Source: Dethiobacter alkaliphilus (GTDB taxonomy: Bacteria > Bacillota > Dethiobacteria > DTU022 > UBA8154). From it: 64,000 nt of DNA. A model generated the notes under the pieces. The model did no database searches. It was not told where the DNA came from and was given only the letters and a program-made list of their open reading frames with translations. Positions 31,662 through 57,439 of the stretch are shown here, one piece after another (the first letter of the stretch is position 1; every line of letters starts with the position of its first letter). A program made the position numbers and the translations under genes. The stretch is taken from the NCBI GenBank assembly GCA_016841605.1, contig JAENYV010000001.1, positions 165,553 to 229,552 of the forward strand. The letters are read 5' to 3'.

Positions 31662-32828
31662 ATGGTTAAAAATTTTTCCAATGAATTTAAAATAGCTCTC
31701 CAGCTGGAAGGGGAAAAGTCTCTTTCCGGAAATGACCTTTTTACTCTCTTAGAAAATATCATGCTTTCCGGTTCGATCAGCAGTGCAGCGGCGCGGATGG
31801 GTGCCTCTTACCGCTATTGCTGGGGGCTGATCCAGGGGGCGGAAAAAACTCTGGGTCTTACATTGGTAGATAAGCAGGTAGGCGGGGTAGCCGGTGGGGG
31901 AACTTCACTGACACCTCAGGGAAAAGAGTTGCTTGAGCAGTATAAGGCTTTTAAACAGGAAGTTGACAGTCAGTTAAAACACTTCCTGGCCCGGACCGGT
32001 AGTACGCCCTCTCAAGATGTTTTTGTCTCAGCCGGACAGCCCGAAAAAGCGGATGAGAGGACTGCTGTGCGGCACCTCTTACTGGCCAGTACTATGGAAG
32101 CAGTGGAAACCGGGCTGATGGATCTTTTGGAAGAGGCTTTTTTCCATACCAGCAGTATCCTGGTCAGGCATATCTCCATCGGCAGCGGACGAGCTTTGCA
32201 GATTGCCAGGGAAGGCCGCGTCGATGTGGTGCTTTCTCATGCTCCGGAACTGGAGAAGTCCTTTATGGACGAGGGCTGGGGAGTAGAAATGATCCCCATC
32301 ATGGCCAATGATTTTGTTATTGCCGGCCCTCTATCCGACCCGGTGGGGGTATCTGAACTGTCCGGTGCGGTAGAGGCTTTCAGAAAGATCGCTTCCTCCC
32401 AGGTGCCCTTTATTAGCCGCGGCGACAGTTCGGGGACCCACCAGCGGGAAAAGGAAATTTGGAAACAGGCGGGGATAATTCCCGAAGGACAGTGGTATAC
32501 CAAATCTTCGGGAATGGTGGGAAATCTGGGAGCCTTACATCTGGCCAGGGAAAAAGAGGGCTATACTCTTGTTGACCGGGCGACCTTTCTTATTTCCCGT
32601 GAGGAAAAAATGATTATTTTTCCTCCTGGAGAAAAAGCAAATGATCCGGCCTGGACCCTGGAAAATATTTTTGTCCTAACCATAGTCAACCCGGAGCGTG
32701 TTCCCGGAGTCAAACTCGCTGATGCGCGGCTTTTTGCCCGCTGGCTGCTGGAAAGGGAAGGGCAGGAGCTTATTTCCTCTTTCGGCCGTGAAACTTTTGG
32801 AACCCCTCTTTTTTCCAGAGTTACCTGA
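31662..32828 (+). CDS. ModE-type winged-helix regulator fused to a tungstate/anion PBP-like domain
   Basis: The N-terminus LLENIMLSGSISSAAARMGASYRYCWGLIQGAEKTLGLTLVDKQVGGVAGGGTSLTPQGKELL is the ModE/LysR-like HTH_1 domain. The C-terminal ~250 aa (..ISRGDSSGTHQREKEIW..) resembles TupA/PBP_like_2 binding proteins. No signal peptide. Confidence 0.7.
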   Translation: MVKNFSNEFKIALQLEGEKSLSGNDLFTLLENIMLSGSISSAAARMGASYRYCWGLIQGAEKTLGLTLVDKQVGGVAGGGTSLTPQGKELLEQYKAFKQEVDSQLKHFLARTGSTPSQDVFVSAGQPEKADERTAVRHLLLASTMEAVETGLMDLLEEAFFHTSSILVRHISIGSGRALQIAREGRVDVVLSHAPELEKSFMDEGWGVEMIPIMANDFVIAGPLSDPVGVSELSGAVEAFRKIASSQVPFISRGDSSGTHQREKEIWKQAGIIPEGQWYTKSSGMVGNLGALHLAREKEGYTLVDRATFLISREEKMIIFPPGEKANDPAWTLENIFVLTIVNPERVPGVKLADARLFARWLLEREGQELISSFGRETFGTPLFSRVT

Positions 32829-32902
32829 TCCGCCTTATTAGGCCGTGCGGATTTTTTTGTAACCGCTATGCAATTTAATGCATATCCGATGACTTGATAA
32901 TA

Positions 32903-32931
32903 TTGACACCCATTTCTTTTTTAAATATAAT
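32903..32931 (+). promoter_or_regulatory. Consensus sigma-A promoter (TTGACA-17 nt-TATAAT) ahead of the 33096 operon
   Basis: TTGACA at 32903-32908, an exactly 17-nt spacer, and TATAAT at 32926-32931. This leaves a ~160-nt leader before the TTG start at 33096. Confidence 0.65.
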
Positions 32932-33095
32932 AGCACATGGAAGGTTCATCGCGGTGGACACTACTTGAAGGAGATGAAACAAACAGAAAAAAGAAAAATT
33001 AAGGGGCAGGCTGAAATTCTATCTTTTTGTACCGGTATATGCTGTCGTTATGTCAAAATAGGCATAATGCCTGCTTAATAAAGGAGGAGGAGACA

Positions 33096-41180: not shown

Positions 41181-41229
41181 ATTTTAGGCGGTTAAGTAAA
41201 ACAAGCATTTTTGTTGGGGAGGACGGCAA

Positions 41230-41958
41230 ATGATAAAACTTGCAGATGTGTCAATAACGCTGGGGGATTTTTCACTGAAGAATGTTCATCTGGAAATAAG
41301 AAAAGGAGAATTCTTTACTATCCTGGGGCCGACGGGTACCGGAAAAACCGTCATCCTGGAGCTGATTGCCGGGTTGTACAGGCCGGACGCCGGTAAAGTG
41401 TTAATTAACGGAGCAGACTCTGAAAACATTCCTCCCGAAAAAAGAGAAATCGGTTTTGTTTATCAGGATTATGCACTTTTTCCCCATCTTAATGTATATA
41501 AAAACATTGCCTTTGGGCCACGACTTCGCAAAATGCCGCCTTCTGCGATTAAAGAAAATGTCCAGGGCCTGGCGGATATGCTGGAAATTACGCACCTGTT
41601 GGCCCGTTTTCCCGGTACTTTGAGCGGTGGTGAGCAGCAGCGTGTTTCACTGGCCAGAGCCCTTATCATGAAACCAAAAATACTTTTAATGGATGAACCG
41701 CTCAGTGCTCTTGATCCCAATACAAAAAGGATGTTATGCGGGGAACTGAAAAGAGTACATGAAAAATACCGCTGTACTGTTGTCCATGTTACCCATGATT
41801 TTAACGAAGCGGCTATGCTGGCGGACCGGATCGGGGTTATACTGAAGGGAAAGGTAAAGCAAGTAGGAGTTCCCAGGGAGGTCTTTGAAAGACCCCGGGA
41901 TCAAGAAGTAAAAAATTTCCTGGGCGTTGAGCCCTTAAAAGCCGTCTATGCACGATAA
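41230..41958 (+). CDS. modC: ABC ATP-binding protein (ModC-like, lacks TOBE domain)
   Basis: Walker A GPTGTGKT, signature LSGGEQQRVSLARA and Walker B LLMDEPLSALD. 242 aa. Confidence 0.75.
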   Translation: MIKLADVSITLGDFSLKNVHLEIRKGEFFTILGPTGTGKTVILELIAGLYRPDAGKVLINGADSENIPPEKREIGFVYQDYALFPHLNVYKNIAFGPRLRKMPPSAIKENVQGLADMLEITHLLARFPGTLSGGEQQRVSLARALIMKPKILLMDEPLSALDPNTKRMLCGELKRVHEKYRCTVVHVTHDFNEAAMLADRIGVILKGKVKQVGVPREVFERPRDQEVKNFLGVEPLKAVYAR

Positions 41959-43034: not shown

Positions 43035-44177
43035 ATGAGTACAGGAATAATTGATGTCAGGGACTGGCAGGTAACCGTAGATTTCCAAACAGGAAATAAA
43101 ATTGAGCTGGAAAATGAACTTACCGGTATGGTCAGGGAGATTATCCGGAACAACAGATATCCCGGGGATATGGATCTGCGAAGTATTGACTGGGTTACTG
43201 ATATGGGATTAAGGCTGGCGGACAAATACAATCCCGATTTTATGTTCCTCAGCTATGCGCAGCCGTATTTTTTTTCCGCCTATGGGCAGGGTACGCCCGG
43301 GGAATGGGAATCAGTTATGAAAAGAATATTTGACAATGTAGAAAAGTTTCTCGCGGGGACGGACTTTTGGCCTGTTGTGGTCGGACTGGGCCGTATGACC
43401 GATCTGCTGGGAAAAATTGATTTAAGTATTCTTGACTGTTTGGCAATTGCTACCAACTGGTCTTTACAATATGCAGGCCTCTTCAATCCCACGGCGGAGG
43501 ATGTAGAAAAAGTAATGGCCATGCCAAAGCTTGAAAAGGTAATTAGTAAGGAAGATTTTGTTAAGGAGTATGGCGGGAGTGAGAGCTTCATCAAAAGATT
43601 CCCCGACTATCTGCTTACTGCTGAAGAGGGTTATACCTTCAAAGGATTTGAAAGTACCTCCAGAAAAATAAAAAAAATACCTGCTAAAAATATTGAAATA
43701 CCAATATATACTACTTTGGGTGAAGTAAATTCCCTTATTGATATCAGAGGATTAATTGACAGTGTACTGCCGGAGAAAAAAGTAGCCCTGATAGTTATTG
43801 AGGCAATAGGAGCCGGAGACTTCGAGTATGAATATAAGCTATGTTCCAATAAATTAAACTCCTATATATATGAACATATTGAAAGTCAGTACCTGGCCAT
43901 GACAACGGGCAAACACTTTCAGTATCATCCTTTTCCTCCTGTTTTTAAATTTTTCGAAGAAGACAATGAAAATAAAAGTTATCCGTTTTCAGGAAGCCAC
44001 TATACACTTCCACAGGATACCATCGGCAGACGGAAGGATATTAAGAGCGGCGCGGTCGGAACAAGAGGAATGGTAACACATGTGGCAAGTGGAGCGGATA
44101 TTTGTATTGAATGTTATGCCAGACAGCTTTCCAATATGGGAACGCTGGCAGTTATTAATGATACAAAAAATGAATAA
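43035..44177 (+). CDS. Hypothetical protein (380 aa), co-transcribed with the radical SAM gene
   Basis: An ATG after AAGGTGAG, 5 nt past the rSAM stop, is preferred over the listed 43005. No motif recognised by eye. Confidence 0.5.
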   Translation: MSTGIIDVRDWQVTVDFQTGNKIELENELTGMVREIIRNNRYPGDMDLRSIDWVTDMGLRLADKYNPDFMFLSYAQPYFFSAYGQGTPGEWESVMKRIFDNVEKFLAGTDFWPVVVGLGRMTDLLGKIDLSILDCLAIATNWSLQYAGLFNPTAEDVEKVMAMPKLEKVISKEDFVKEYGGSESFIKRFPDYLLTAEEGYTFKGFESTSRKIKKIPAKNIEIPIYTTLGEVNSLIDIRGLIDSVLPEKKVALIVIEAIGAGDFEYEYKLCSNKLNSYIYEHIESQYLAMTTGKHFQYHPFPPVFKFFEEDNENKSYPFSGSHYTLPQDTIGRRKDIKSGAVGTRGMVTHVASGADICIECYARQLSNMGTLAVINDTKNE

Positions 44178-44251
44178 CAGTAATAATAAAGAAGGGATAG
44201 AAGAGAAGCCCGCAGAACGTACTGTTTTTTACACTTCCGCGAAAATTTTTG

Positions 44252-44305
44252 TTGACACCCCTTGTTTATACATATATAATTTTCCTGTAGTGGTAAAAAA
44301 GACTA
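44252..44305 (+). promoter_or_regulatory. Conserved promoter/leader element, copy 1 (TTGACA-17-TATAAT + GTAGTGGTAAAAAAGACTA box)
   Basis: TTGACA 44252-57, 17-nt spacer, TATAAT 44275-80, then TTTCCTGTAGTGGTAAAAAAGACTATTTTT. Near-identical elements occur at 52732 and 57257. Confidence 0.7.
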
Positions 44306-44464
44306 TTTTTTTTGCCGCGCAGTTTAAATCCAAGAAGTCCGGTTGTTCGTTTTTTCTATATTATGAAGAAAGTAATATGGGAAAAATATGTTTTGCAAGC
44401 ATTATGCCTGTTCAGGCATAATGCGACAGATTTTGACGTTATAAAGATAAGGGGTGTCTGAATA

Positions 44465-47400
44465 ATGCTGATTACTAACAAAAATTGGTGGTACAGGCTC
44501 CTGCCGTCTATTTTGATTGTGCTCCTGCTTCCCTGTTTCTTCGGCCTGCCGGTACCGGCCGCTGTTCATTCCGAAGGGGGCATTGTTACAATAACAGAGC
44601 CCACCGGGAATATCAAGAATACCGTTAGCAAGGAAACAGCAAGCGGACCAGGCGGTTCGGCCGGCAACAATGTCACTTTTAAGGACCAGGTTCCCGTATT
44701 TTTGAACATGAATAATCCTGACGGTGTAACCGGGAAAGAAGTGTATGCAGGGCATACCTTATCCGGAACCGACGGCGCAACCCCCGCGGATACAGACAGC
44801 CGTGGATTTATCGTGGTAATGGATGAAGCCGGAATACCAGCTCCGGCTTTGACTGCCGATACCAGCGATAACCTGCTTGGGAAGTCCATAGATATTACCT
44901 TTACGGATAATGCCTCCTGGCGGGCGGCGATTAGCGGTGTGCTTGTGGACGGGGTAGCGCTGCAGTCCGGCAAATACACGGTAAGCGCCGGCAAAATCAG
45001 CATTTCCGGCAGCGTTTTCCAGGAATCGAAAGAATACGCCATTGTAGTTGCAGCCAATGGTTACACCGATGCAAGTGTGAGCCAGATAATCGGTACATTG
45101 ATAATTACCGGAGACGGGGTGACGGATCCCCAAATTTTTACGCAGCCCCAACTCGAGGCAATGCAGCCCCAGCTCGAGGAAATGGAGCCCCAGCATGTTG
45201 TTTACAGTTGCATTAATACCTGGCCCAGCAAGAAATGGTATGTGGGAAAAGGGGTCAAATTAGAAGACCTGCTCACCCAGGCGGGACTGAAAGAAACCGC
45301 CGAACAGATTAAATTCAGTTCCGTTGATGGCTACTATATGACGCTTACAGTCAAGGAGTTATTAACGGACAAGCGTTATTGTTTTCCCAATTTCAAAACC
45401 GGTGGCGACGGAGACGGGCATATTCCCGGTGACCCGTCGGGTGCATTCGAGGTGGAGACTATTCTAGGCCTGGTCAGCGCCGAGGGCACCGACGAATCTT
45501 CCTCTATGAACGATACAAATGCCCTGTTGCTGATGCTGGGGCAGCGGTCAGTTACCGAGCAAACAGGCCCCATATTTGTTAAATACGTCAATAAAATTGA
45601 AGTATTGACTGCTGCACCGGCTAAATGGGATAATCCGACGGCGAGCCCGGATAGTGGCATAGTATCTGCGGGGACCATGGTGGAACTGCATAGCAAGTAC
45701 AACGATTTGGATAAGGTCCATTATACGACGGACGGCAGTACTCCAACCATAGAAAGTCCCATGTATAACTGGATTGCCAGCCGGTGGTGGTCCTCGCGAC
45801 AGGATGTTAAGGACGAAATAAACCACCCGATTGAAATTACAAAGAACACCGCTATTAAGGCAATAGTAATCGGTCCAGGCAAAGAGGACAGCGATATTGT
45901 CACCTTCGAGTACCAGGTTCCTGTTATTATGAACACAGATAATCTTGCCGATGCAACCGAAAACGAAGCATACGCAGGTCATACCTTCACAGCGACAGGC
46001 GGAGCTGAGCCATACAGTTTTGCAGTAACTGCCGGGACACTGCCGGCAGGCATGGTTTTAAACGGTGCCGTATTGGAAGGAACGCCGACTGAGAGTGGGA
46101 CATTTCTCTTCACTGTAACCTTAACGGACAGTGCAGATCCCGCGGATGCAGACAGCCATGAGTTTACCCTGGCGGTTGATGAGGCTGAAGTAGTCACGCC
46201 GGTCTTGAATGCCGATACGACGGACAATAAAGTTGGACAGCCGATCGAGCTGACCTTTACGGATGATGGGCTCTGGCGTTCGGCGATTAGCGGTGTGTTT
46301 GTGGACGAAGTGGTGCTTCAGCCGGAGGAATACACGGTAAGCGCCGGTAAGATTAACATAGCTGCCGGAGTCTTCACGTCAGCAAAAGATTACAGTATCG
46401 TAGTGGAAGCCGAAGGGTACGAAGATGCGGCCGTGACGCAGATTATCACTACGTCGTCAACGCCGGAGACTAAGGAACCACCGGTTCTGACCGCCGATAG
46501 TAGCGATAACCTGAAGGGACGGCCGATCGAGCTGACTTTTACGGATGATGGGCTCTGGCGTTCGGCGATTAGCGGTGTGCTGGTGGACGAAGTGGTGCTT
46601 CAGCCGGAGGAATACACGGTAAGCGCCGGTAAGATTAACATAGCTGCCGGAGTCTTCACGTCAGCAAAAGATTACAGTATCGTAGTGGAAGCCGAAGGGT
46701 ACGAAGATGCGGCCGTGACACAGATTATCACTACGTCGTCAGCGCCGGAAACTAAGGAACCACCGGTTTTGACCGCCGATAATAGCGATAACCTGCTTGG
46801 GCAGGGTATAGATATTACCTTTACGGATGATGGCTCCTGGCGTTCGGCGATTCAAGAGGTTAGTGTGGACGGCGCGGTGCTTCAGCCGGAGAAATACACG
46901 GTTAGTGCCGGTAAGATTGCCATTGTTTCCGGCGTTTTCAAGGAATCGAAAGAATACGCCATCGTAGTTAAAGCAGGCGGGTACCCCGATGCAAGTGTGA
47001 GCCAAACGATTAATAGATTGGTAATTACAGGAGCCGGGGTGACTGAATCCAAGATGTTTACGCAGTCCCAGCTCGAAGCAATGTCGCAGCGCCAGTATGT
47101 GTACAGTTGCATCAATACCTGGCCCAGCAAAAAGTGGTATGTGGGAAAAGGGGTCAAATTGAGCGATCTGCTCACACAGGCGGGGATGAAGGGAAACGCC
47201 AAGCTCATTAAATTTTCTGCCGGCGATGGTTATGCCATGACACTTACTGTTCAGGAAATATTAACGGACAAGCGTTATCGTTTTCCTAATTTCAAGACCG
47301 GTGGCGATGGAGACGGGCATATTCCCGGCGATCCGTCGGGCAAAGTAGAGGTGGAAACTATTCTTGGGCTGGTCAGCGCCGAGGGCACGGACGACCCCTC

Positions 47401-49567
47401 TTATATGAACGACACAAATTCCCTGCTGCTGATGCTGGGACAGCGCTCAGTCATCGAGCAAACCGGCCCCTTATTTGTTAAAAACGTCAATAGAATTGAG
47501 GTACTTACTACTACTCCCGGCAAATGGGATACTCCAAAGGTGACTCCGAGTGGTGGAGAGGTGCCTGTTGGAACCATGGTGGAGCTGCACAGCCTTTTTG
47601 ACGACATGGATAAGGTTCATTACACGATGGACGGCAGTACTCCAACCATAGAAAGTCCCATGTATAACTGGATTGCCAGCCGATGGTGGTCTTCACGGGG
47701 CGAAGAAAAAGTAGCCGAGATTAATCACCCGCTTGAGCTGACAAAAGATACGGTAATCAAAGCAATCACAATTGGTTCCGGTAAGATGAACAGTGATGTT
47801 GTCACCTTTTCCTACAAGGTCAGAACAAGTGCGGACAGCAAAATTACCTCCGGAGAAGGCGGTACAATCAGCCTTGGAGAAGAAGCCGTTCTTGAAATAC
47901 CGGGAGGAGCGCTGACCGGAAGCGGAGCGAGGGAAGTAAAAATAGAACGTGTGGAAACAACTCTCTCGGCCCCGAAGGGCTTCAAGCTACTGGGTAGTGT
48001 ATATGAGTTCAGCGTGGGAGGCAAAAACAGCTACAATTTTGCCAAGAAAGTAACCATTAAGCTCAGCTTTGATGCCGGGGCTGTAAATGCGGACGAGACA
48101 CCGGCCATCCACTATTATGACGAAGCTGCCGGCGAGTGGATAAACCTGGGCGGGGAAGTAAGCGGGAATATAATTACTGTGCAGGTGGATCACTTTACTA
48201 AGTTTGCTGTTATTGCAGCCCTTCCCAGTACTGTGACTGTCAAAGTTGAGCCCCGCGAAGGGGGTACAGTAAGCCTTGGAGAAGAAGCTGTTCTTGCAAT
48301 ACCGGGAGGAGCGCTGACCGGAAGCGGAGCGAGGGAAGTAAAAATAGAACGTGTGGAAACAACTCTCTCGGCCCCGAAGGGCTTCAAGCTACTGGGTAGT
48401 GTATATGAGTTCAGCGTGGGAGGCAAAAACAGCTACAATTTTGCCAAGAAAGTAACCATTAAGCTCAGCTTTGATGCCGGGGCTGTAAATGCGGACGAGA
48501 CACCGGCCATCCACTATTATGACGAAGCTGCCGGCGAGTGGATAAACCTGGGCGGGGAAGTAAGCGGGAATATAATTACTGTGCAGGTGGATCACTTTAC
48601 TAAGTTTGCTGTTATTGCGGCGCTTCCCAGTACTGTGACTGCCAAAGTTGAGCCCCGCGAAGGGGGCACAGTAAGCCTTGGAGAAGAAGCTGTTCTTGCA
48701 ATACCTGAAGGAGCGCTGACCGGAAGCGAAGCACTGGAGGTAAAAATAGAGCGGGTGGTTGTACCTCCTGCTCCACCAGCGGGCTTCAAGCTGCTGAGCG
48801 ATATGTTTGATTTCAGTGTGGACGGCAAGAAGTGGTATCGCTTTGCCGGGGAAGTTACCATCAAGCTCAGCTTCGCTCCTGAGGTAAGAAAAGCGGAAGA
48901 GATCCCGGTTATTTATTGCTACGACGAATTCTCGCGGCGTTGGATAAACCTGGGCGGGGAGATAAACGGGACCACTGTTACTGTACAGGTGGACCACTTC
49001 ACCAAATTTGCCGTAATGGCAGCAATGGAGCAGGGATTGGCAGATATCGCCGGGCACTGGGCGGAATACAGTATTAAAGAACTGCTTACCCTTGGGGCTA
49101 TTAGCGGTTATCCGGACGGCACCTTTAAGCCCGACAAGATAATAACCAGGGCTGAATTTACCACAGTGCTGGCGAAGTCCTTTCAGCTTGAAAACAGGGG
49201 CGAAAAGACCTTTATCGACACTGAGGCACACTGGGCCAAAAATTACATAGCTGCGGCAGTAGCGGAGGGTATTGTCAATGGCTATGACACCGCGACCTTC
49301 GGACCGGATAATCCGGTCACCCGCGAGCAGATGGCTGTGATGACCGTCAAGGCGGCCAAAGTATCTCCGGAAGCAGGAGAGCCCCTCTTTGACGACAGCG
49401 GCAGTATCTCCGCGTGGGCCGGGGAAGCCCTGGTCACAGCGATGGAGAACGGGCTCATAGAGGAATATGCCGATAACACCGTCCGGCCTCAGAACAGTGC
49501 CACCAGGGCCGAAGCTGTTACAGTTATTGTGAATGCGTTGCATAAGGCGGGAGAGAGGAAAATATAA
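44465..49567 (+). CDS. Giant S-layer-homology (SLH) surface protein, 1700 aa, multi-module
   Basis: Signal peptide MLITNKNWWYRLLPSILIVLLL..AAVHS. Two super-modules each comprise He_PIG-like Ig (EAYAGHT..GG..PYSF..GTLPAG..L.G.L.GTPT), DUF1533/Shr-like repeats (LTADTSDN..G..I.ITFTDD..WR.AI), an Oxidored_molyb-like domain and CHB_HEX_C (VHYTTDGSTPT..SPMYN). These are followed by 3 x 134-aa repeats and 3 C-terminal SLH domains (AGHWAEYSIKELL.., EAHWAKNYIAAAV.., ISAWAGEALVTAM..). Confidence 0.9.
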   Translation: MLITNKNWWYRLLPSILIVLLLPCFFGLPVPAAVHSEGGIVTITEPTGNIKNTVSKETASGPGGSAGNNVTFKDQVPVFLNMNNPDGVTGKEVYAGHTLSGTDGATPADTDSRGFIVVMDEAGIPAPALTADTSDNLLGKSIDITFTDNASWRAAISGVLVDGVALQSGKYTVSAGKISISGSVFQESKEYAIVVAANGYTDASVSQIIGTLIITGDGVTDPQIFTQPQLEAMQPQLEEMEPQHVVYSCINTWPSKKWYVGKGVKLEDLLTQAGLKETAEQIKFSSVDGYYMTLTVKELLTDKRYCFPNFKTGGDGDGHIPGDPSGAFEVETILGLVSAEGTDESSSMNDTNALLLMLGQRSVTEQTGPIFVKYVNKIEVLTAAPAKWDNPTASPDSGIVSAGTMVELHSKYNDLDKVHYTTDGSTPTIESPMYNWIASRWWSSRQDVKDEINHPIEITKNTAIKAIVIGPGKEDSDIVTFEYQVPVIMNTDNLADATENEAYAGHTFTATGGAEPYSFAVTAGTLPAGMVLNGAVLEGTPTESGTFLFTVTLTDSADPADADSHEFTLAVDEAEVVTPVLNADTTDNKVGQPIELTFTDDGLWRSAISGVFVDEVVLQPEEYTVSAGKINIAAGVFTSAKDYSIVVEAEGYEDAAVTQIITTSSTPETKEPPVLTADSSDNLKGRPIELTFTDDGLWRSAISGVLVDEVVLQPEEYTVSAGKINIAAGVFTSAKDYSIVVEAEGYEDAAVTQIITTSSAPETKEPPVLTADNSDNLLGQGIDITFTDDGSWRSAIQEVSVDGAVLQPEKYTVSAGKIAIVSGVFKESKEYAIVVKAGGYPDASVSQTINRLVITGAGVTESKMFTQSQLEAMSQRQYVYSCINTWPSKKWYVGKGVKLSDLLTQAGMKGNAKLIKFSAGDGYAMTLTVQEILTDKRYRFPNFKTGGDGDGHIPGDPSGKVEVETILGLVSAEGTDDPSYMNDTNSLLLMLGQRSVIEQTGPLFVKNVNRIEVLTTTPGKWDTPKVTPSGGEVPVGTMVELHSLFDDMDKVHYTMDGSTPTIESPMYNWIASRWWSSRGEEKVAEINHPLELTKDTVIKAITIGSGKMNSDVVTFSYKVRTSADSKITSGEGGTISLGEEAVLEIPGGALTGSGAREVKIERVETTLSAPKGFKLLGSVYEFSVGGKNSYNFAKKVTIKLSFDAGAVNADETPAIHYYDEAAGEWINLGGEVSGNIITVQVDHFTKFAVIAALPSTVTVKVEPREGGTVSLGEEAVLAIPGGALTGSGAREVKIERVETTLSAPKGFKLLGSVYEFSVGGKNSYNFAKKVTIKLSFDAGAVNADETPAIHYYDEAAGEWINLGGEVSGNIITVQVDHFTKFAVIAALPSTVTAKVEPREGGTVSLGEEAVLAIPEGALTGSEALEVKIERVVVPPAPPAGFKLLSDMFDFSVDGKKWYRFAGEVTIKLSFAPEVRKAEEIPVIYCYDEFSRRWINLGGEINGTTVTVQVDHFTKFAVMAAMEQGLADIAGHWAEYSIKELLTLGAISGYPDGTFKPDKIITRAEFTTVLAKSFQLENRGEKTFIDTEAHWAKNYIAAAVAEGIVNGYDTATFGPDNPVTREQMAVMTVKAAKVSPEAGEPLFDDSGSISAWAGEALVTAMENGLIEEYADNTVRPQNSATRAEAVTVIVNALHKAGERKI
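46241..46804 (+). repeat. Near-identical 282-bp tandem duplication (2 units; DUF1533-like module)
   Basis: Anchor CCGATCGAGCTGAC occurs at 46241 and 46523. Both units encode PIELTFTDDGLWRSAISGV(F/L)VDEVVLQPEEYTVSAGKINIAAGVFTSAKDYSIVVEAEGYEDAAVTQIITTSS(T/A)PETKEPP. Confidence 0.9.
47861..49030 (+). repeat. 402-bp tandem repeat x3 (134-aa Ig-like module); units 1 and 2 almost identical, unit 3 diverged
   Basis: Anchor CGGGAGGAGCGCTGACCGGAAGCGGAGCGAGGG occurs at 47901 and 48303, with the diverged unit-3 counterpart (CTGAAGGAGCGCTGACCGGAAGCGAAGC) at 48705. Antisense ORFs 47812-48024 and 48190-48426 share identical translations, confirming DNA identity. Confidence 0.9.
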
Positions 49568-49620
49568 CGGCACAACCTGTTGAGAAACCAAGATTTTCCG
49601 AAACGGAGTGAAAGTGAAAA

Positions 49621-50205
49621 TTGAGTAAAATGTACCGGAAAAGAATTTCCTTTATAACAACTATAACAACGCTATCGTTATTGTTTTTTCTTCTAATGCT
49701 TTACCTTACGTTTTTGGCCGGATGTCAGGGTGGTCAGCCGACTTCAGCCGGAGAAGGTATTCTAGTAATACGGGGGGATGCTGTGGAAGGTGAAGTTTGC
49801 CTTACCCTGGATGAATTAAAGTCCATGGAGGACGGCCTGATTGAAGACGATTATTTTTCCGTTAATTCATACGGGACAAAGGAGTATTTTCATTTCAAGG
49901 GCATCTGGATCTGGCATGTTTTACAAGAAAAAACGGACTTAAAGGATAATGCCTCCAAGGTGACTTTCATTGCAGAGGACGGTTACACAGTGGAATACAC
50001 GCTGGAAGAGGTCAAGAGGGAAGATTATATTGACGAGCAAAATCCTGCGACAAAGTACAAGATGATCCTGGCCTGGGAAGAAAATGGAAAAGAGTATGAT
50101 CCGGATGAAGGCAATCCCTTTCAACTGGTCGTCGGTCAAAAGGAGCCGGGTGATGAAAACAAACCATACTGGGTGCGCAATGTAAAGACCATCCGCATTG
50201 ATTGA
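49621..50205 (+). CDS. Small lipoprotein with divergent Oxidored_molyb-like domain
   Basis: Signal peptide plus lipobox (LTFLAGCQG). LVIRGDAVEGEVCLTLDELKSM...FIAEDGYTVEYTLEEV...PFQLVVGQ...WVRNVKTIRI parallels the cassette of the large proteins (L.ITGDGV....T...LE.M....DGY..TLTV.E.L....LMLGQ....FVK.VN.IEV). The start may be the ATG at 49630. Confidence 0.7.
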   Translation: MSKMYRKRISFITTITTLSLLFFLLMLYLTFLAGCQGGQPTSAGEGILVIRGDAVEGEVCLTLDELKSMEDGLIEDDYFSVNSYGTKEYFHFKGIWIWHVLQEKTDLKDNASKVTFIAEDGYTVEYTLEEVKREDYIDEQNPATKYKMILAWEENGKEYDPDEGNPFQLVVGQKEPGDENKPYWVRNVKTIRID

Positions 50206-50261
50206 AGAAAGCAGGCCGACAACCGGTGAGTGAGAATGGTTCCTAAACTGGAGGTTATAGC

Positions 50262-51344
50262 GTGGAAGAAAAAATGAAAAAACATAAGAACTATTACCTG
50301 AGCAATCGGGATCTGCTTATTGTTGCTGTTTTGAGCGGTATCGGAGGAGTGATGAGTACCTATATCGGCTATCTGGGCAATCTCCTGAACCGTATTTGCG
50401 GTGTTCCTTTCGGTGCGGGACAGTTCGTCTCCGGTTTGCATATTTTCTGGTTTATCCTGGTGGCGGGGCTGATCAGGCGACCGGGAGCTGTTACCGTCGC
50501 GGGTCTGCTCAAAGGAGTAATTGAATTGCTCACCGGCAGTACCCACGGGGTTGTCATTGTCTTGATTTCTCTGATACAGGGTCTTATCGTCGATGTTGTC
50601 CTTCTGATTGCCAGGCGCCGGAATTTGGGAAGCTATATGCTGGCCGGCGGGCTTTCCGCCGCCTCAAATGTTTTTGTCTTTCAGCTCCTCTACTTTTCCG
50701 GTGTCCCTTTCACCTATCTTCTCTTTATAGGACTTTTAGCCTTTGTTTCCGGAGTTCTTCTGGCAGGCAGCTTTGGTCACAGTGTGCTGGATATTGTGTT
50801 GCAGGCCAGGCCTTTTCGTTTGGCCGATGCTTCAAGGGAAGAGACAGCCGCAACAGCCGCGACCCCCGGGAGCAAAAAAAGAGTCCTCCCCCGTTTAAGG
50901 ATTGCTGCAACGGTTCTACTGGTTGTGCTGTTTTTTATTGGTGCGGTTTATTACTTTACCGCTGTCTTTGAACCTCCCTGGGTAGGCCCCAGCTGCCGGG
51001 TAGAAGGAGCGGTAGAAAACCCCCTCTCTTTCCAGCTTTCCCGTTTCGACCGGTATGAAACAACCATAACCGCCGAATTAAAGGGGCAGGTTAGCTACAT
51101 CCCTCCGCAGGAGTATACAGGCATCCCCTTAAGTATAATTCTCCAGGAGGCCTCTCCCCTGGATGAGGCTAAAAAGCTTAAAGTTATGGCAACGGATGGT
51201 TATATGGTGGAATTTGAACTGCAAGAAGTGTTAAATGACGACCTGATGGTACTGATCCGGGAAGAAGATATGCTTCGCCTTATAGCCGGAAATTACGAAG
51301 GAGGATACTGGGTGAAACTGGTAAACAGAATGATAGTGGAATAA
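50262..51344 (+). CDS. Polytopic membrane protein: ECF-transporter-S-component-like N-domain fused to divergent Oxidored_molyb-like C-domain
   Basis: About 6 TM helices (LSNRDLLIVAVLSGIGGVMSTYIGY..GAGQFVSGLHIFWFILVAGL..LLKGVIELLTGSTHG..) plus a 7th TM. The extracytoplasmic part reads CRVEGAVENPLSFQLSRFD...VMATDGYMVEFELQEV...YWVKLVNRMIVE. Confidence 0.65.
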   Translation: MEEKMKKHKNYYLSNRDLLIVAVLSGIGGVMSTYIGYLGNLLNRICGVPFGAGQFVSGLHIFWFILVAGLIRRPGAVTVAGLLKGVIELLTGSTHGVVIVLISLIQGLIVDVVLLIARRRNLGSYMLAGGLSAASNVFVFQLLYFSGVPFTYLLFIGLLAFVSGVLLAGSFGHSVLDIVLQARPFRLADASREETAATAATPGSKKRVLPRLRIAATVLLVVLFFIGAVYYFTAVFEPPWVGPSCRVEGAVENPLSFQLSRFDRYETTITAELKGQVSYIPPQEYTGIPLSIILQEASPLDEAKKLKVMATDGYMVEFELQEVLNDDLMVLIREEDMLRLIAGNYEGGYWVKLVNRMIVE

Positions 51345-51697: not shown

Positions 51698-52543
51698 TTA
51701 AACGGCTATCATGGTTACACCGATATTTACAGGCCGGCCAAAATACATGGAAGTGGTAACGATGGCATCCACTCCTGTTGCCGCATATTTTTCAACATTA
51801 GTTTCGTTTATTCCCCCGGCGGCAATGGTCAGAATGTGCGGGAAATCTTTTTTTATCTCCCGGACCAGGTCGGCTATTTTTTCGGGAGACAATTTATCAA
51901 ACTGTAACCCGTCAATACCCGCGTTGCATAAATAATCTGCTTCTTCCGGTTGTTCAATTTCTACGATTATCTTTTTTTCACAGGTTTTTGTTTTTAATTC
52001 CTGTATTTTTGCAGCCAGTTTGTCCTCCGATTCCAGGAAAACCCGGTGATGCTTAAAAATAAGTATTGTTTCCGATAAGCCGAGCCGGTGAGGAAAACCT
52101 CCGCCGCTCAAAACAGCCTTAATGGATAATTCTTTTGTTCCCGGGAATACCTTTCTTGTTGATAGTATAGAGACGTTCCGGTTTACTTTCTTCGCTTTTT
52201 CTACCAGCTTGTTGGTGCGAGAAGCCACTGCACTGGCATACTCCAGGATATTCTGGGAAGGTTTCCAGAGCAGGTGCAAAACATCTGCTTTACCGCTAAT
52301 TTTCATAAAGATCTGTCCGGGAAGGACTTTCGAACCTGAAGGGGTATATTCGAGCACCCGGCCTCCCTTTAGCTCACACAAACGTGCAATTTCCTCCGTG
52401 CCGCAAAGAACGGCTTCATCCCTGCTGAGGAAGTGCATTTCTCCGTCCCGGCTACCGATATTCAACATAAAGGTAGTGAGATCCATGTAAGGAGTATCTT
52501 CTTTAAGCCATTTTTCTAAAGTATCATTGGTGATATTAACCAT
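51698..52543 (-). CDS. modD: ModD-like protein (quinolinate/nicotinate-nucleotide phosphoribosyltransferase family)
   Basis: LEKWLKEDTPYMDLTT.., GKADVLHLLWKPSQNILEYASAVAS, TRKVFPGTKELSIKAVLSGGGFPHRLGLSETILIFKHH and a C-terminal TIM-barrel part (AAGGIN..N). It fits the ModD/QPRTase pattern. Confidence 0.7.
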   Translation of the reverse strand: MVNITNDTLEKWLKEDTPYMDLTTFMLNIGSRDGEMHFLSRDEAVLCGTEEIARLCELKGGRVLEYTPSGSKVLPGQIFMKISGKADVLHLLWKPSQNILEYASAVASRTNKLVEKAKKVNRNVSILSTRKVFPGTKELSIKAVLSGGGFPHRLGLSETILIFKHHRVFLESEDKLAAKIQELKTKTCEKKIIVEIEQPEEADYLCNAGIDGLQFDKLSPEKIADLVREIKKDFPHILTIAAGGINETNVEKYAATGVDAIVTTSMYFGRPVNIGVTMIAV

Positions 52544-52731
52544 GTTAAATCCTCCTGTATAGAATTAAGAGACCATCAAGCATTTAACAGACCGGACATT
52601 ACACGAAAGGACTGTTGATTTAGGGGAAGTATACCAAATTTCCTCCTTTATGTAAAGATATGCATATCCATGTGTCTCAATATGATTATATTAAGGGGCA
52701 AAATAAGCTGCAAATCAAAGTAGTTTTTCTG

Positions 52732-52785
52732 TTGACCCTCTTATTTTTATCATATATAATTTTCATGTATTGGTAAAAAAGACTA
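52732..52785 (+). promoter_or_regulatory. Conserved promoter/leader element, copy 2
   Basis: TTGACC 52732-37, 17-nt spacer, TATAAT 52755-60, then TTTCATGTATTGGTAAAAAAGACTAACTTTT. Confidence 0.7.
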
Positions 52786-52906
52786 ACTTTTGTGGTTACC
52801 AGCAATATGCATGCCGAAACATATCGCGCCTCAAGAGAGCGCTACCAGGTCCGGGACTGTTAATTATTTTTAATATACTGAATAAGACGGGAGAGAGGAG
52901 AGTATA

Positions 52907-54655
52907 ATGGCGCAGGGAAATAATCTTCAATTAAAAAAATGGTTGTATAAGCAATTAATAACCATTCCAGCTCTGTTATTACTTACTGCTTCGTTTTATC
53001 TGACGGCGCCTGCGGTTGCTTTGGCCATACAGTCGGACTCGCTGGAAATTATCGGGGACGGGGTGACGACTCCTGTGACGTTCACCTTGGCCGAGCTTGA
53101 GGCGATGAAGCAATACGAGCAAGTCTACAGTACGATCAACACTTATCCGACCAAGAGATGGTACACGGCAAGAGGGGTTAAATTGAGGAACCTGCTTGCT
53201 TTGGCAGGAATGACAGAAGAAGCCGAAATGATTAAGTTTATATCCAATGATGGCTACGATGTGACCCTTACGGTTAAAGAACTGCTGGAAGACAAACGGT
53301 ATTATTTTCCGGGTTTAAAGGAGAATCATCCCAGTGATGGAAGCATTCCAGGTTCTCCGGAGGGGGCGCAGGAGGTTGAGCCTATCCTTGCCCTTATCAG
53401 TGCCGAGGGCAGTGACAATCCGGCTAATATGAACGACAGGGATTTCTTGCTGCTGATGCTGGGGCAGCGGGCCGTAACCGAGCAGACGAATAATTTGTTT
53501 TTAAAATATACAAGTAGAATCGAGGTGCTTACCACTGCTCCGGAAAAATGGGATAGTCCGAAGACGAGTATTCCGGACGGCACCGTGCTGCCTCCGGGGA
53601 TCATGCTGGAATTGAGCAATAAGGGCAATGACGATGATAAAATTTATTATACCCTGGACGGCAGCACTCCCACGGTGAACAGCCCTATGTTTAACTGGAG
53701 CGCCAGTCGCTGGTGGCCTTTACGAGCGAATGACCTGGAGAGTGTCAACAGGCCGATCGAGCTTACGGAGGACACCGTCCTCAAGGCCATCACCATCGGT
53801 CCCGGCAGGGAGGATAGCGATGTGGTCACGTTTACCTTCACTACTGATCCCACGGCTGTGGACCCGACGAAGATCCCCGGCGGACCGCCGACCGGCGTGA
53901 CCCTCGACCGCAATGCAATTGACCTCAAAGTCGGCGCCACTTTTCAGCTGCAGGCGACGATAGCTCCGTACAATGCCACGGACCGGAGCGTAACCTGGAG
54001 TTCCAGTGATACCAGGACGGCCACGGTGGATAACAATGGCCTGGTAACCGTTGTCGGCCCGGGCTCGGCTACCATCACCGTAAAAACTTTAGTCGGCAAA
54101 TATATATCCTCCTGCATCGTGAACGGTCCTGAACAGGATGATGATGAAGGGGGCGCTATAATTGCCGGTCCCGTTTCTCCGGAAAATGAAGCCCAGGAGG
54201 ATCCTTTGGAGCCGTCGGCGGAAGAACCATTGGTGGAAGAGATTCAAGAAGAGGAGCTTTCAGTAGAGGAGCCGCCGCCATTACCGGAAGATGATCAGCA
54301 GTTCGTGGAAGATAAGGTTACGGCTGATCCCGCGACAGCACCTTCAAAAACCCCTGATAAAGCACCGGACTCTTCCGATGAACCACCAGTGGATGAGTTG
54401 CCTGTACCGGATGTCAAAGGGCAGTATTTGGCGGAAAAGGATGCAGTAGCACTCGCTTCACCCGCTGGCGATGTTTCCTCAGAACAGCCGGGTAGCCTTA
54501 CCCGGCAGATATTCGAAATGTCGCTTGATGTTACTGTACCATTGCCATTACAGGAGGTGCAAAACGAACTGAATATTTATACTGCTGCTATTTTCCTGTT
54601 TCTTTTTCTTTCCGGTATAAGCAAAAAAATCGTAGAATATGCAAAGGAGCTTTGA
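52907..54655 (+). CDS. Envelope protein: signal/TM - Oxidored_molyb-like - CHB_HEX_C - Big_2 Ig - acidic P/E-rich spacer - C-terminal TM anchor
   Basis: The cassette runs LEIIGDGVTTPVTFTLAELEAM..YSTINTYPTKRWY..IYYTLDGSTPTVNSPMFN. The Big_2-like part is VTLDRNAIDLKVGATFQLQATIAPYNATDRSVTWSSSD..ATVDNNGLVTVVGPGSATITV. The C-terminal helix is IYTAAIFLFLFLSGI. Confidence 0.8.
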   Translation: MAQGNNLQLKKWLYKQLITIPALLLLTASFYLTAPAVALAIQSDSLEIIGDGVTTPVTFTLAELEAMKQYEQVYSTINTYPTKRWYTARGVKLRNLLALAGMTEEAEMIKFISNDGYDVTLTVKELLEDKRYYFPGLKENHPSDGSIPGSPEGAQEVEPILALISAEGSDNPANMNDRDFLLLMLGQRAVTEQTNNLFLKYTSRIEVLTTAPEKWDSPKTSIPDGTVLPPGIMLELSNKGNDDDKIYYTLDGSTPTVNSPMFNWSASRWWPLRANDLESVNRPIELTEDTVLKAITIGPGREDSDVVTFTFTTDPTAVDPTKIPGGPPTGVTLDRNAIDLKVGATFQLQATIAPYNATDRSVTWSSSDTRTATVDNNGLVTVVGPGSATITVKTLVGKYISSCIVNGPEQDDDEGGAIIAGPVSPENEAQEDPLEPSAEEPLVEEIQEEELSVEEPPPLPEDDQQFVEDKVTADPATAPSKTPDKAPDSSDEPPVDELPVPDVKGQYLAEKDAVALASPAGDVSSEQPGSLTRQIFEMSLDVTVPLPLQEVQNELNIYTAAIFLFLFLSGISKKIVEYAKEL

Positions 54656-54661
54656 AGCAAG

Positions 54662-55333
54662 GTGACGGAATCTATTTTATTATCCTTAAAAGATACCATG
54701 CATGTCATCTCGTCAAATTTATTGATACCTACTATTATTATCCTGCTCCTACTTTTGGCTTTGACCGTAGTCGAACTCGGCGGTATTCTGGCGGAAACCC
54801 TGACGGAAAGACGCAGGATGAAAGTCGACGTGTCGGAGTTGGTTGACGCTTTTCAAGGGAAGGATGCCGGCAAGATTATGGACAAGATCGAGCATAGCCT
54901 TTTGTTACGGCGTCAGAAGAAGGTTCTCGGCAAGCTAATCAGGCACAGCAATTTGCCGTCTGCCTCGTTGCAGGCACTGGCGCGCCGCTTGCTTGCCGGT
55001 GAGGAACTGCATTATACCAAGATAACAAACAGGACCGATCTGGTGGTGCGTTTGGGTCCCATGTTCGGATTGATGGGCACTCTCATTCCACTAGGGCCGG
55101 GTATGATCGCCCTCGGCCAGGGGGATACCAAGACACTGGCAGATTCTCTGCTCATCGCCTTTGACACAACAATAACCGGCCTGGCAGCCGCGGGTATTGC
55201 TTTTGCCATTTCCCGGTTACGGAAACGGTGGTATGATGATTACTTGAGTAATCTGGAGGCCTTAATGGAGAGCCTATTGGAGGTGTTTGCTCATGAACGG
55301 GGGATTGAGAAGCAGGAGGTACAGGACGCATAG
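54662..55333 (+). CDS. MotA/TolQ/ExbB-family proton-channel protein
   Basis: GTG start. Three TM segments. LGPMFGLMGTLIPLGPGMIALGQG......LADSLLIAFDTTITGLAAAGIAFAISRL matches the ExbB/TolQ signature region. Confidence 0.8.
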   Translation: MTESILLSLKDTMHVISSNLLIPTIIILLLLLALTVVELGGILAETLTERRRMKVDVSELVDAFQGKDAGKIMDKIEHSLLLRRQKKVLGKLIRHSNLPSASLQALARRLLAGEELHYTKITNRTDLVVRLGPMFGLMGTLIPLGPGMIALGQGDTKTLADSLLIAFDTTITGLAAAGIAFAISRLRKRWYDDYLSNLEALMESLLEVFAHERGIEKQEVQDA

Positions 55334-55619
55334 GGAATCAGAAGATATCAATCCTCTGGAGGGCGTTATCAACATTGTAGATGCCATGCTGGTATTTGCC
55401 TGCGGACTTATGCTTGCTTTGGCTGTTTACTGGAACATCGACCTGGGCCCCATAGGAGAACGAATCAATATAAACCGTGGACGGGAGGTGACGGAAGTCC
55501 CGGAGTTACGTGACGACCTGATTGAAACCCAAGACCAGGGAAAGCTTTACGAAAGAATGGGCACCGTCTATAAAGACCCCGCAACCGGGCAGCTTTTTAT
55601 GCTGACCGACGAGGAATAA
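55293..55619 (+). CDS. DUF2149-like / ExbD-like single-pass partner of the ExbB-like protein
   Basis: ATG 9 nt after GGAGG, with a 41-nt overlap on the ExbB-like gene. EDINPLEGVINIVDAMLVFACGLMLALAV resembles the ExbD/DUF2149 N-terminal anchor. Confidence 0.6.
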   Translation: MNGGLRSRRYRTHRESEDINPLEGVINIVDAMLVFACGLMLALAVYWNIDLGPIGERININRGREVTEVPELRDDLIETQDQGKLYERMGTVYKDPATGQLFMLTDEE

Positions 55620-55643
55620 TAAAGATAAGGGGGGACTAGATCA

Positions 55644-57122
55644 ATGCAAGCTGATAAAAGGAAAGGGGAGACACCCCCGGCATATCCGCCGGAATCTTCT
55701 CAGTTAAAGAGATGGATTTACAGGTCCATGATGATTGTCCTGGGTATGTTAATGCTGGTAAGTATGTTTTACATGCCGTTGCCCGCGGTTGTCCATGCCG
55801 CGACGGACTCGCTGGAAATTACCGGAGACGGGGTGACGGACCCGCTGACCCTGACCCTGACCCAGTTAGAGGAAATGGAGCAATACCAGTATACATACAG
55901 TTGTATTAACACGTGGCCTACCAAAAAATGGTATGTAGGTAAAGGAGTTAAATTGAGCGATCTGCTCGCCAGGGCGGGGATGACCGATGAGGCCAGGCTG
56001 CTTAAATTTACGGCTGTCGACGGTTACACAGTGACGCTTACGGTCAAGGAACTGTTAAAAGATAAGCGTTATCGTTTTCCCAATTTCAAGAGCGGTGGCG
56101 GCGATGGTGACGGGCATACTCCGGGCGATCCTTCGGGTCAGGTGGAGGTAGTGACGATTATCGGCCTGGTCAGCGTCGAAGGCAGCGATAATCCCCAGTA
56201 TATGAACGATCTGAATACTTTGCTGTTGATGCTGGGGCAGCGTGCTGTAACTGAGCAGACAGGAAACCTTTTCGTTAAATATCTGAACAAGATCGAAGTA
56301 CTTACGGACGAGCCGGAAAAATGGGATGCACCGCAGGCCAATCCGGACAGTAGCACAGTGCCCGCGGGAACCATGGTGACACTGAGCAATCTCCACAATG
56401 ATGACGACAAAATTTATTATACCACGGACGGCAGTGAGCCGACCCGGAACAGCCCCATGTATAACTGGATTGCCAAGCGCTGGTGGTCATCACGGGCGGA
56501 TGTACTGGGAACCATCAATCACCCTATCGGACCCATTGAGAAAGATACAATCATCAAGGCGGTTACCATCGGACCCGGTAAAGCGGACAGCGATGTCGTT
56601 ACCTTCAAATATCAGGTTTCCGGGGCTGAGCCGGACAACGGGACATCAACGTCAACAGTCACACCCGGTCCGGAAGAGTCTGAGACAACAGAAGAACACG
56701 GGACAGATGAAATGAAAGGCGAAGTACCCGGGAAACCGTCGCAAAAAATTATCAAGCTTGCCATTGACCGGATGGAAGCGGATATTGACGGCAATACCTG
56801 CGCTCTGGAGGCAGCACCTTATCTCAACACCGAGGTCGGTCGTGTCCTGGTTCCGGTACGGTTTGTCAGCGAAGCCCTGGGTGCCGGAGTTAATTGGAAC
56901 CCGGAAAAAGGACAGATAACCGTCACCGATGAAGGAAAAGAAATTCTCCTGACCCTCGGTTCCGGCAATGTTCAGATCAACGGTATACCGCAGGCCGTTG
57001 ATTGTGTTCCGGTTACACTCCCGCCCGGCCGTACTTTTATCCCCCTCCGCTTTGTGAGTGAGACCCTTGGAGCGAAGGTGGGCTACAAAGCAGAGACCGG
57101 AGAGATCACCATCACAAGATAG
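55644..57122 (+). CDS. Envelope protein: signal/TM - Oxidored_molyb-like - CHB_HEX_C - T/E-rich linker - copper-amine-oxidase-N-like wall-binding domain
   Basis: The cassette runs LEITGDGVTDPLTLTLTQLEEM..YSCINTWPTKKWY..IYYTTDGSEPTRNSPMYN. The C-terminus reads VLVPVRFVSEALGAGVNWNPEKGQITV....TFIPLRFVSETLGAKVGY, the typical Cu_amine_oxidN1 repeat pair. Confidence 0.8.
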   Translation: MQADKRKGETPPAYPPESSQLKRWIYRSMMIVLGMLMLVSMFYMPLPAVVHAATDSLEITGDGVTDPLTLTLTQLEEMEQYQYTYSCINTWPTKKWYVGKGVKLSDLLARAGMTDEARLLKFTAVDGYTVTLTVKELLKDKRYRFPNFKSGGGDGDGHTPGDPSGQVEVVTIIGLVSVEGSDNPQYMNDLNTLLLMLGQRAVTEQTGNLFVKYLNKIEVLTDEPEKWDAPQANPDSSTVPAGTMVTLSNLHNDDDKIYYTTDGSEPTRNSPMYNWIAKRWWSSRADVLGTINHPIGPIEKDTIIKAVTIGPGKADSDVVTFKYQVSGAEPDNGTSTSTVTPGPEESETTEEHGTDEMKGEVPGKPSQKIIKLAIDRMEADIDGNTCALEAAPYLNTEVGRVLVPVRFVSEALGAGVNWNPEKGQITVTDEGKEILLTLGSGNVQINGIPQAVDCVPVTLPPGRTFIPLRFVSETLGAKVGYKAETGEITITR

Positions 57123-57186: not shown

Positions 57187-57256
57187 CTAGAAAACGGCTG
57201 TATTTGGGCAATATCCATGGTGACTGAAACATACGCTTTATGTTGACAACTTTTTG

Positions 57257-57310
57257 TTGACACCCCTTGTTTTTCCTATATAATTTAGTTGATTGGTAAA
57301 AAAGCCAACT
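57257..57310 (+). promoter_or_regulatory. Conserved promoter/leader element, copy 3
   Basis: TTGACA 57257-62, 16-nt spacer, TATAAT 57279-84, then TTAGTTGATTGGTAAAAAAGCCAACTTTTT. The spacer CCCCTTGTTT is identical to copy 1. Confidence 0.65.
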
Positions 57311-57439
57311 TTTTGCAGTAATATTAAATACAAACCGGTCAATTGTTATTTTAACAGGCACAATTAAGCATGAAGGGGTTTTTTTACGCACATTATGTCT
57401 GAATTGGCATATTGATGGCACTTAAACGGAAAACATTCG

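Follow-up and report, generated by a model that had tools for sequence, protein, structure and literature searches.

Several described systems are relevant to the locus analysed here. In Bacillus, a hairpin at the 5' end stabilises mRNAs against 5'-end-dependent decay, and 5'-terminal stabiliser stem-loops of the ermC and aprE type are known from Firmicute mRNAs. For ModE, a repressor site located 100 or more nt past the transcription start is unusual, and the modA site of E. coli overlaps the start. The TunR family, reportedly described by Kazakov in 2013, is said to be tungstate/molybdate-responsive, and its DNA-binding domain is recombinase-like. The consensus of the E. coli ModE site is ATCGNTATATA-N6-TATATANCGAT (PMC545781), and the ModE site of Methanosarcina acetivorans, RTTATGT-N8-RCATAAY, was validated by EMSA, mutated sites included (PMC12327845). 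TaoR is referred to in PMC11980592 as another tungstate/molybdate-responsive regulator (Rajeev 2019, as cited there).

In the 64-kb window (i.e., the whole stretch of DNA that was analysed), everything from 31662 onward is a molybdenum/tungsten (Mo/W) island. A preliminary description of this DNA reported one promoter/leader element in three copies, at 44252, 52732 and 57257, in front of what it called surface-protein units. All three copies were found at these places, and large surface proteins are indeed encoded downstream of them; the units are not, however, generic surface-protein units, as they belong to the Mo/W island. The genes of concern are the following.

31662..32828, + strand: candidate regulator with a ModE-type winged-helix DNA-binding domain (residues ~12-107) and a TupA-like tungstate-binding domain (residues ~135-375)
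33027-36184: FecCD-type ABC system
39531-41958: modA, modB and a WtpC/ModC-like ATPase
42029-43030: radical-SAM protein
44465..51344, + strand: unit 1, three genes
44465-49567, + strand: unit 1 gene 1, 1700 aa, with two Oxidored_molyb-like + Fn3_assoc modules, four Shr-like HID domains and SLH repeats
49621-50205, + strand: unit 1 gene 2, Oxidored_molyb-like
50262-51344, + strand: unit 1 gene 3, ABC_cobalt-like membrane domain and Oxidored_molyb-like domain
51698..52543, - strand: modD (QRPTase-family molybdenum utilisation protein), divergent from unit 2; TIGR01334 218 bits, cut-off 179
52907..57122, + strand: unit 2, four genes
52907-54655, + strand: unit 2 gene 1, protein with the module and Big_2
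54662-55333, + strand: unit 2 gene 2, MotA/ExbB-like protein
55287-55619, + strand: small ORF of unit 2, at the position of the DUF2149 gene of relatives, without a family match here
55644-57122, + strand: unit 2 gene 4, protein with the module and Cu_amine_oxidN1
57784..64000, + strand: unit 3, giant protein with the module, He_PIG/Shr-like domains, LRR_5 repeats and a NosD/beta-helix part, running past the window end

The candidate regulator has 1557 homologues at E<=1e-20. TunR was rejected as its family, as the DNA-binding domain of TunR differs. The assignment of the gene at 51698-52543 as nadC was also rejected, since the nadC model scored below its cut-off and TIGR01334 above. A conserved gene set that is probably under Mo/W control, and that consists of a giant SLH/Shr-HID protein, a Big_2 protein, a MotA/ExbB-like protein, a DUF2149 protein and a Cu_amine_oxidN1 or SLH protein, was observed in the window (44465-64000) and in the relatives L080-L087 and L089. 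All the large proteins of this set share the Oxidored_molyb-like + Fn3_assoc module, and the set may serve to acquire a metal or a cofactor at the cell surface. Just after the gene at 50262-51344 we noticed an orphan 64-aa ORF (51462-51656, + strand; 437-631 in L080) with a lone Fn3_assoc/CHB_HEX_C-like domain, which probably either is what remains of a larger gene or reflects a frameshift.

The three copies of the promoter element, hereafter the cassette, are composed as follows.

44245..44318, + strand: copy 1, with a T-tract, -35 TTGACA at 44252-44257, -10 TATAAT at 44275-44280 and predicted +1 at G44287
44287-44305 and 44306-44313, + strand: part of copy 1 predicted to be transcribed, i.e., the box GTAGTGGTAAAAAAGACTA and a T8 run, respectively
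52726..52796, + strand: copy 2, with -35 TTGACC at 52732-52737, -10 TATAAT at 52755-52760, predicted +1 at G52767 and the box GTATTGGTAAAAAAGACTA at 52767-52785
57251..57320, + strand: copy 3, with -35 TTGACA at 57257-57262, -10 TATAAT at 57279-57284, predicted +1 at G57291 and the box GATTGGTAAAAAAGCCAA at 57291-57308

When aligned, the copies contain, in order, a T-tract, TTGAC(A/C), a 16-17-nt spacer, TATATAAT, 6-7 nt, G(T)A(G/T)TGGTAAAAAAG(A)C(T/C)A(A/T) and a T-run, and their conservation spans about -45 to +30. The pairwise identity over ~67 nt (44248-44314, 52728-52794 and 57253-57317) is 77-84%, compared to 37-51% (random level) in the 70-nt flanks and 54% +/- 3 for shuffled copies. 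Thus, the cassette is sharply bounded and far above chance. Given that the ~270-aa module common to the downstream genes has only 48-58% amino-acid identity between units, the cassette DNA is also better conserved than the genes behind it. The (near-)consensus hexamers with spacers of 17, 17 and 16 nt that had been described before were confirmed (TTGACA, 44252-44280; TTGACC, 52732-52760; TTGACA, 57257-57284). Their sigma-70-type scores of 12/12, 11/12 and 12/12 are the top three among promoter-like matches in 43900-58000, and their spacing lies within the 16-18 nt of sigma-A promoters. A nhmmer profile built from the three copies found only those three in the window (E 5e-20 to 5e-18), with the next match at E 0.7. 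With three copies in 64 kb, all pointing at a gene start, the cassette does not behave as a dispersed repeat or mobile (MITE-like) promoter element, and the flanking TTTTTG is identical in all copies and hence part of the cassette rather than a target-site duplication.

The -35/spacer sequence TTGACAC[CT]nCTTGTTT has five matches in 726 kb of retrieved sequence, all of them at Mo/W regulon promoters, including those of the tupA-like operons in L090 and L091, which argues that this part of the cassette is older than its use before the surface-protein genes. A terminator-like hairpin (about 57149-57186) precedes copy 3, upstream of which GTTGACA is found twice, 14 nt apart (57241-57262); the upstream one reads GTTGAGA in L080. 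The class II lanthipeptide synthetase-like gene at 20277-23546 (- strand; DUF4135 + LANC_like) is unrelated to the cassette.

Local alignment of the three leaders revealed that each has its own palindrome, TATGY-N8-RCATA, 40-134 nt past the predicted start. The sites in the window and the additional control region that carries two of them are listed here.

4118-4135: exact TATGY-N8-RCATA inside an unrelated YceG-domain gene (2693-5140)
32865..33068, + strand: control region of the ABC operon, with the promoter TTGACACCC-17-TATAAT (32903-32931), two palindromes and no box
32867-32884 and 33049-33066: the two palindromes at the ABC operon, flanking the promoter at 32903-32931; the latter is GTTATGT-N8-GCATAAT and matches the archaeal ModE motif at 14/14 positions
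44401..44422, no strand assigned: leader 1 palindrome ATTATGC-CTGTTCAG-GCATAAT, core 44403-44420, about +117 to +134 and 45 nt before the ATG of the 1700-aa gene
52647..52668, no strand assigned: palindrome TTTATGT-AAAGATAT-GCATATC between modD and the unit-2 promoter, invariant in L080
52804..52825, no strand assigned: leader 2 palindrome AATATGC-ATGCCGAA-ACATATC, about +40 to +57
57392..57413, no strand assigned: leader 3 palindrome ATTATGT-CTGAATTG-GCATATT, about +104 to +121 in the ~490-nt leader, within a 61-nt run invariant in L080

Seven exact TATGY-N8-RCATA sites are present in the window, where 0.15 would be expected, and none of 100 shuffles reached seven. Six of them fall within Mo/W-island control regions, and the one at 4118-4135 is probably due to chance. 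As extended sequences, the palindromes match RTTATGT-N8-RCATAAY at 11-14 of 14 positions, so that both the half-sites and their spacing are those of ModE-type operators. They are located at Mo/W genes and co-occur with a gene for a ModE-domain regulator in the window, L080, L089, L090, L091 and, with one mismatch, L088. The palindrome at 52647..52668 lies about 105-125 nt upstream of modD and overlaps a minus-strand promoter-like site. As its promoter is flanked by two ModE-type palindromes, the haem/B12-type (FecCD-type) transporter is suggested to belong to the Mo/W regulon as well; this promoter begins with TTGACACCC, like cassette copies 1 and 3. A promoter-like match, TTGCAA-18-CATAAT (44393-44422), lies over the leader 1 palindrome, and a second promoter at the palindrome is possible, since the half-site CATAAT is itself -10-like.

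A third, weak block common to the leaders, (G)TCCGG..TTGTT..TTTTT, was noticed at 44327-44362, 52843-52880 and 57327-57360 and at about 2530-2550 of L089, with local scores of 16-20. Because it falls in different frames of the putative mini-ORFs considered below, it represents similarity at the nucleotide level. The unit-3 leader (57285-57783, ~490 nt) has runs of 87, 61 and 54 nt that are invariant in L080; it has no Rfam match and no conserved ORF, and a candidate conserved small ORF from 57468 was discarded, as L080 differs there by indels of 1 and 4 nt.

Homologues of the unit-2 protein number in the hundreds in Desulfotomaculia, among them Sporotomaculum, Pelotomaculum and Desulfofalx; only one, that of L080, exceeds 69% identity. 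L080, a JGI metagenome sequence with 92% identical DNA, carries cassette copies 2 and 3 and its three palindromes at orthologous places. In five more distant contigs, i.e., L081 (Sporotomaculum syntrophicum), L083 (Pelotomaculum PtaB.Bin104), L084, L085 and L086, synteny is kept and the cassette is absent. There, nine Moco/Wco riboswitches (RF01055, 50-73 bits), including one tandem pair, precede the homologues of units 1 and 3.

L081 3757-3873: RF01055
L081 14087-14206: RF01055
L083 5331-5447: RF01055
L083 5512-5627: RF01055
L083 19704-19820: RF01055
L084 2902-3028: RF01055
L084 10693-10811: RF01055
L085 5769-5885: RF01055
L086 7812-7931: RF01055

In these relatives, the unit-2 genes run on from unit 1 as one operon, without a control region of their own. 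No TATGY-N8-RCATA was found in the intergenic DNA of the five riboswitch-bearing contigs. Conversely, no RF01055 match was found in the window at the gathering score, in the three leaders at E<=10, in L080 or in L089; Rfam as a whole returned nothing in the window and only chance-level matches in the leaders at E<=10. Riboswitch and palindrome are therefore mutually exclusive among these sequences. A literature search found no paper that mentions both 'Moco riboswitch' and 'S-layer'.

Orthologues of the regulator in L088, L089, L090 and L091 all adjoin an operon with the palindrome in its leader. In L089 (regulator 78% identical), the regulator gene is directly upstream of a Big_2/ExbB/DUF2149 operon, and the spacer contains TTGACA-17-TATACT followed by tttcttGTAATGGTAAATATTTTTGGGG and two palindromes, one exact and one with one mismatch; the order is thus regulator gene, promoter, GTAATGGTAAA, two palindromes and Big_2 operon. 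In L090 and L091 (regulator ~60% identical), a tupA-like operon follows the regulator gene. The conserved blocks of the spacer are the promoter TTGACAC(C/T)GCTTGTTTT...TATAAT and an exact palindrome roughly 80-110 nt downstream of it. L088 (72%) has a one-mismatch palindrome about 30 nt after a promoter. L090 also contains tandem c-di-GMP-I riboswitches (12230-12321 and 12412-12500) upstream of a transglutaminase-core gene.

The part of the cassette that is predicted to be transcribed calls for separate treatment. Its 15-nt core, TGGTAAAAAAGMCWA, has three exact matches in 64 kb (44291, 52771 and 57294), and every other site there has at least two mismatches. In comparison with L080, 0/53 changes were counted over the box and T-run, while the remainder of the two intergenic spacers shows 98/981 (~10%; Fisher p=0.007) and the -35/-10 spacer also varies. 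This bears out the earlier statement that conservation extends past the -10 into the transcribed leader, down to about +30. It does not hold for the whole box, as only the 5' half GTAnTGGTAAA and the T-run are kept in L089 and the 3' half AAAGMCWA is missing. This footprinting has little depth, because the box is otherwise present only in L080, which is close (92% nt), and in the intermediate relative L089. The transporter promoters of the same regulon are without the box. An exact scan for TATAAT-N8-12-TGGTAAAAAAGNNNANNTTT gave 25 matches in public genomes and 54 in metagenomes, collections that do not contain the source genome; these were scattered single chance matches without the -35/spacer. 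Searches of the window for AAAAG-N3-7-CTTTT and TGGTAA...TTACCA returned only the copies and two AAAAG-type matches far upstream (2202 and 3804). CodY, Rex and Fur sites were rejected by eye, and an H-type pseudoknot of the two alternative stems was rejected on geometry, as its loops would be of zero length.

What the box does can be read in several ways. The TGGTAAAAAAGACTA box had been put forward as a candidate binding site, perhaps an operator overlapping +1, with the ModE-like regulator among the proteins that might bind it. The box does overlap the start region, is invariant in L080 and has the regulator gene 11 kb upstream. It is, however, unlike any ModE motif, with no TATRY half-sites and no N8 palindrome. 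The canonical palindrome further downstream in each leader is the better candidate and tracks the regulator gene in genomes without the box, given that the regulator-adjacent operons (the window promoter at 32903, L090, L091 and L088) have the palindrome and no box. With its 3' half dispensed with in L089, the box is hardly credible as a ModE operator. A binding site for a second regulatory protein, or sigma-dependent pausing close to the promoter (TGnTAAAAA is similar to an extended -10), giving extra control of the surface-protein units, would account for a primary sequence that is conserved at +1 to +20 without RNA structure and occurs only at surface-protein units and not at transporter promoters of the same regulon. 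Weak inverted half-sites, ATTGGT-N7/8-ACYAAY, point in the same direction, but they are poorly symmetrical and not retained in L089, there is no candidate protein, and the independent copies are too few for a motif definition; we consider this explanation unlikely, though not far-fetched. The similarity from +1 to +30 could also be without function past the promoter and merely date from the splitting of an ancestral operon, if a promoter fragment was recently copied or gene-converted at that time. The sharp boundaries, the loss of half of the box in L089 and the separation by modD of units that form one operon in relatives would be consistent with such an origin. Against it, the box is unchanged while the promoter spacer and other intergenic DNA vary, its 5' half is kept in L089 despite the distance of that relative, and the leaders past the box are otherwise unalignable, which speaks for old copies. 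We consider this explanation quite improbable.

Two further explanations place the function of the box in the transcript. A 5'-terminal RNA element, either an mRNA-stabilising hairpin or a protein/Hfq-binding A-run/U-run, would be supported by the ability of the A6G run to pair with the following U-run, by the fold of copy 1 (-13.7 kcal/mol, z = -4.0) and by one double change, from G.U to U-A, that distinguishes copies 1 and 2 within an alternative UUGGU/ACUAA stem. Copies 2 and 3, however, fold no better than shuffles (z of -0.4 and +0.2, respectively), L089 has a z of -1.4, with its first 19 nt predicted to be single-stranded and the A-run/loop part deleted, and RNAalifold found 0 pairs in six sequences, a test that is weak with so few independent sequences. 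The conserved structure with covariation that is expected of a structured cis-regulatory RNA leader was thus not observed; the preliminary description had offered a conserved 5' RNA leader as one possibility. We do not think that the box is an RNA structure, and an RNA element of either kind appears very unlikely. Alternatively, a near-leaderless mini-ORF (NTG GTA AAA AAG = M-V-K-K) whose translation affects the leader could begin with the box. Among the four distinct copies, the variable base yields GTG, TTG, TTG and ATG, with A-rich codons next, the indel in L089 is a multiple of 3, and the ORF of copy 2 ends in TAATG, overlapping the main ATG. The start-codon pattern is nevertheless not significant, since the probability of drawing no C in four draws is 0.32; three of four starts are non-AUG, located 2-3 nt from the predicted 5' end without a Shine-Dalgarno sequence, and the encoded peptides are unrelated, with lengths of 44, 48, 24 and 24 aa and a stop at codon 17 in copy 2 of L080. 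We regard a mini-ORF as highly improbable.

We favour, with moderate confidence, a mechanism in which the sigma-A cassette drives the units, Mo/W control is exerted via the ModE-type leader palindromes bound by the regulator encoded at 31662, and the box is a DNA-level part of the promoter. In the cassette, a T-tract is followed by a consensus -35 and, after a spacer of 16-17 nt, by an extended TATATAAT -10, with a start-site/initial-transcribed box from the predicted +1 G; it would drive the three units of the Mo/W island from near-consensus sigma-A promoters. The Mo/W signal would most likely enter via the TATGY-N8-RCATA palindrome in every leader and not via the box. On the sequence evidence, we infer that the tungstate- or molybdate-loaded ModE-HTH/TupA-like regulator sits on the leader palindrome and blocks or occludes transcription, so that the units would be OFF when the metal is replete, which is the same logic as that of the Moco riboswitches on the homologous operons elsewhere. 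The ModE-TupA regulator would then replace the Moco riboswitch of other genera, and the extra cassette before unit 2 may have become necessary once modD came between units 1 and 2. The distance of the sites from the start, unusual for ModE at 100 nt or more, and the possible second promoter at the palindrome speak against this mechanism. The weakest step is the role of the box, which may be a constrained DNA-level promoter part (start-site choice, +1 G, promoter escape) that is specific to the surface-protein units and possibly a second operator. That the three units are co-regulated, as had been suggested, is well supported by the shared cassette, the ModE-type palindrome in each unit and the homologues that are jointly under Moco riboswitches in other genera; very probably they form one regulon.

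A counterpart of the control region is the Moco/Wco riboswitch (RF01055), which is found at the equivalent place, past the promoter and ahead of the first gene of homologous surface-protein operons, in five contigs including those of Sporotomaculum and Pelotomaculum, and which is expected to follow the same OFF logic. The element of the window is DNA/promoter-based and without a conserved RNA fold, and it is therefore a functional analogue and not a member of that family. The same operons thus appear to be under an RNA sensor (Moco riboswitch) in some genera and under a protein sensor (ModE-TupA) in a sister lineage.

The comparison with ModE operators concerns the leader palindromes and not the ~70-nt cassette. 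With RTTATGY-N8-RCATAWY, they are nearly identical to the archaeal motif and have the 5-N8-5 geometry also found in E. coli, and they are likewise located at Mo/W transport and utilisation genes beside a gene with a ModE DNA-binding domain. They differ in lying well downstream of the main promoter, and the predicted regulator has a TupA-like sensor (periplasmic-binding-protein fold) instead of a Mop/TOBE di-domain; binding is predicted here. TaoR and TunR are likewise one-component regulators in which a DNA-binding domain is fused to an oxyanion-binding domain, and they control W/Mo transport and enzymes. TaoR has a different HTH and PBP_like PF12727, while the regulator of the window combines ModE-N with PBP_like_2/TupA. 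The palindrome thus provides an operator prediction for a widespread regulator architecture that, as far as we found, is uncharacterised in the literature.

The ops/JUMPstart element of RfaH and the LoaP leaders are also short conserved sequences just past the promoter of very long operons for surface or secreted products, a likeness of position only. An ops-like box was rejected by eye and by search, as no ops core (GGCGGTAGnnT; GGCGGTAG) is found in the leaders, the sole GGCGGTAG in the window is at 12958 and unrelated, and no NusG paralogue was noticed among the genes examined. As in the ermC/aprE-type stabilisers, the box extends from the predicted +1 and copy 1 has a strong hairpin; the structure is, however, not conserved among the copies.

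It is possible, and we suggest it only tentatively, that these genes represent an undescribed system, in which S-layer-anchored sulfite-oxidase-like (Oxidored_molyb-like) and haem-receptor-like (Shr HID) proteins, an ExbB-like/DUF2149 pair and an ECF-S-like membrane protein would form a Gram-positive surface scavenger of Mo, W or cofactor. The Desulfotomaculia would switch it by the Moco riboswitch or, in this lineage, by the ModE-TupA one-component regulator, with GTAnTGGTAAA as a new cis element of surface units, e.g., a second-regulator site. The tie between the very large surface proteins of syntrophic Desulfotomaculia and Mo/W status suggests that these proteins have a role in metal or cofactor acquisition. 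A promoter plus a ModE-type operator are of known kinds; the link of Mo/W to large surface proteins and the swap from riboswitch to regulator are the more notable results.
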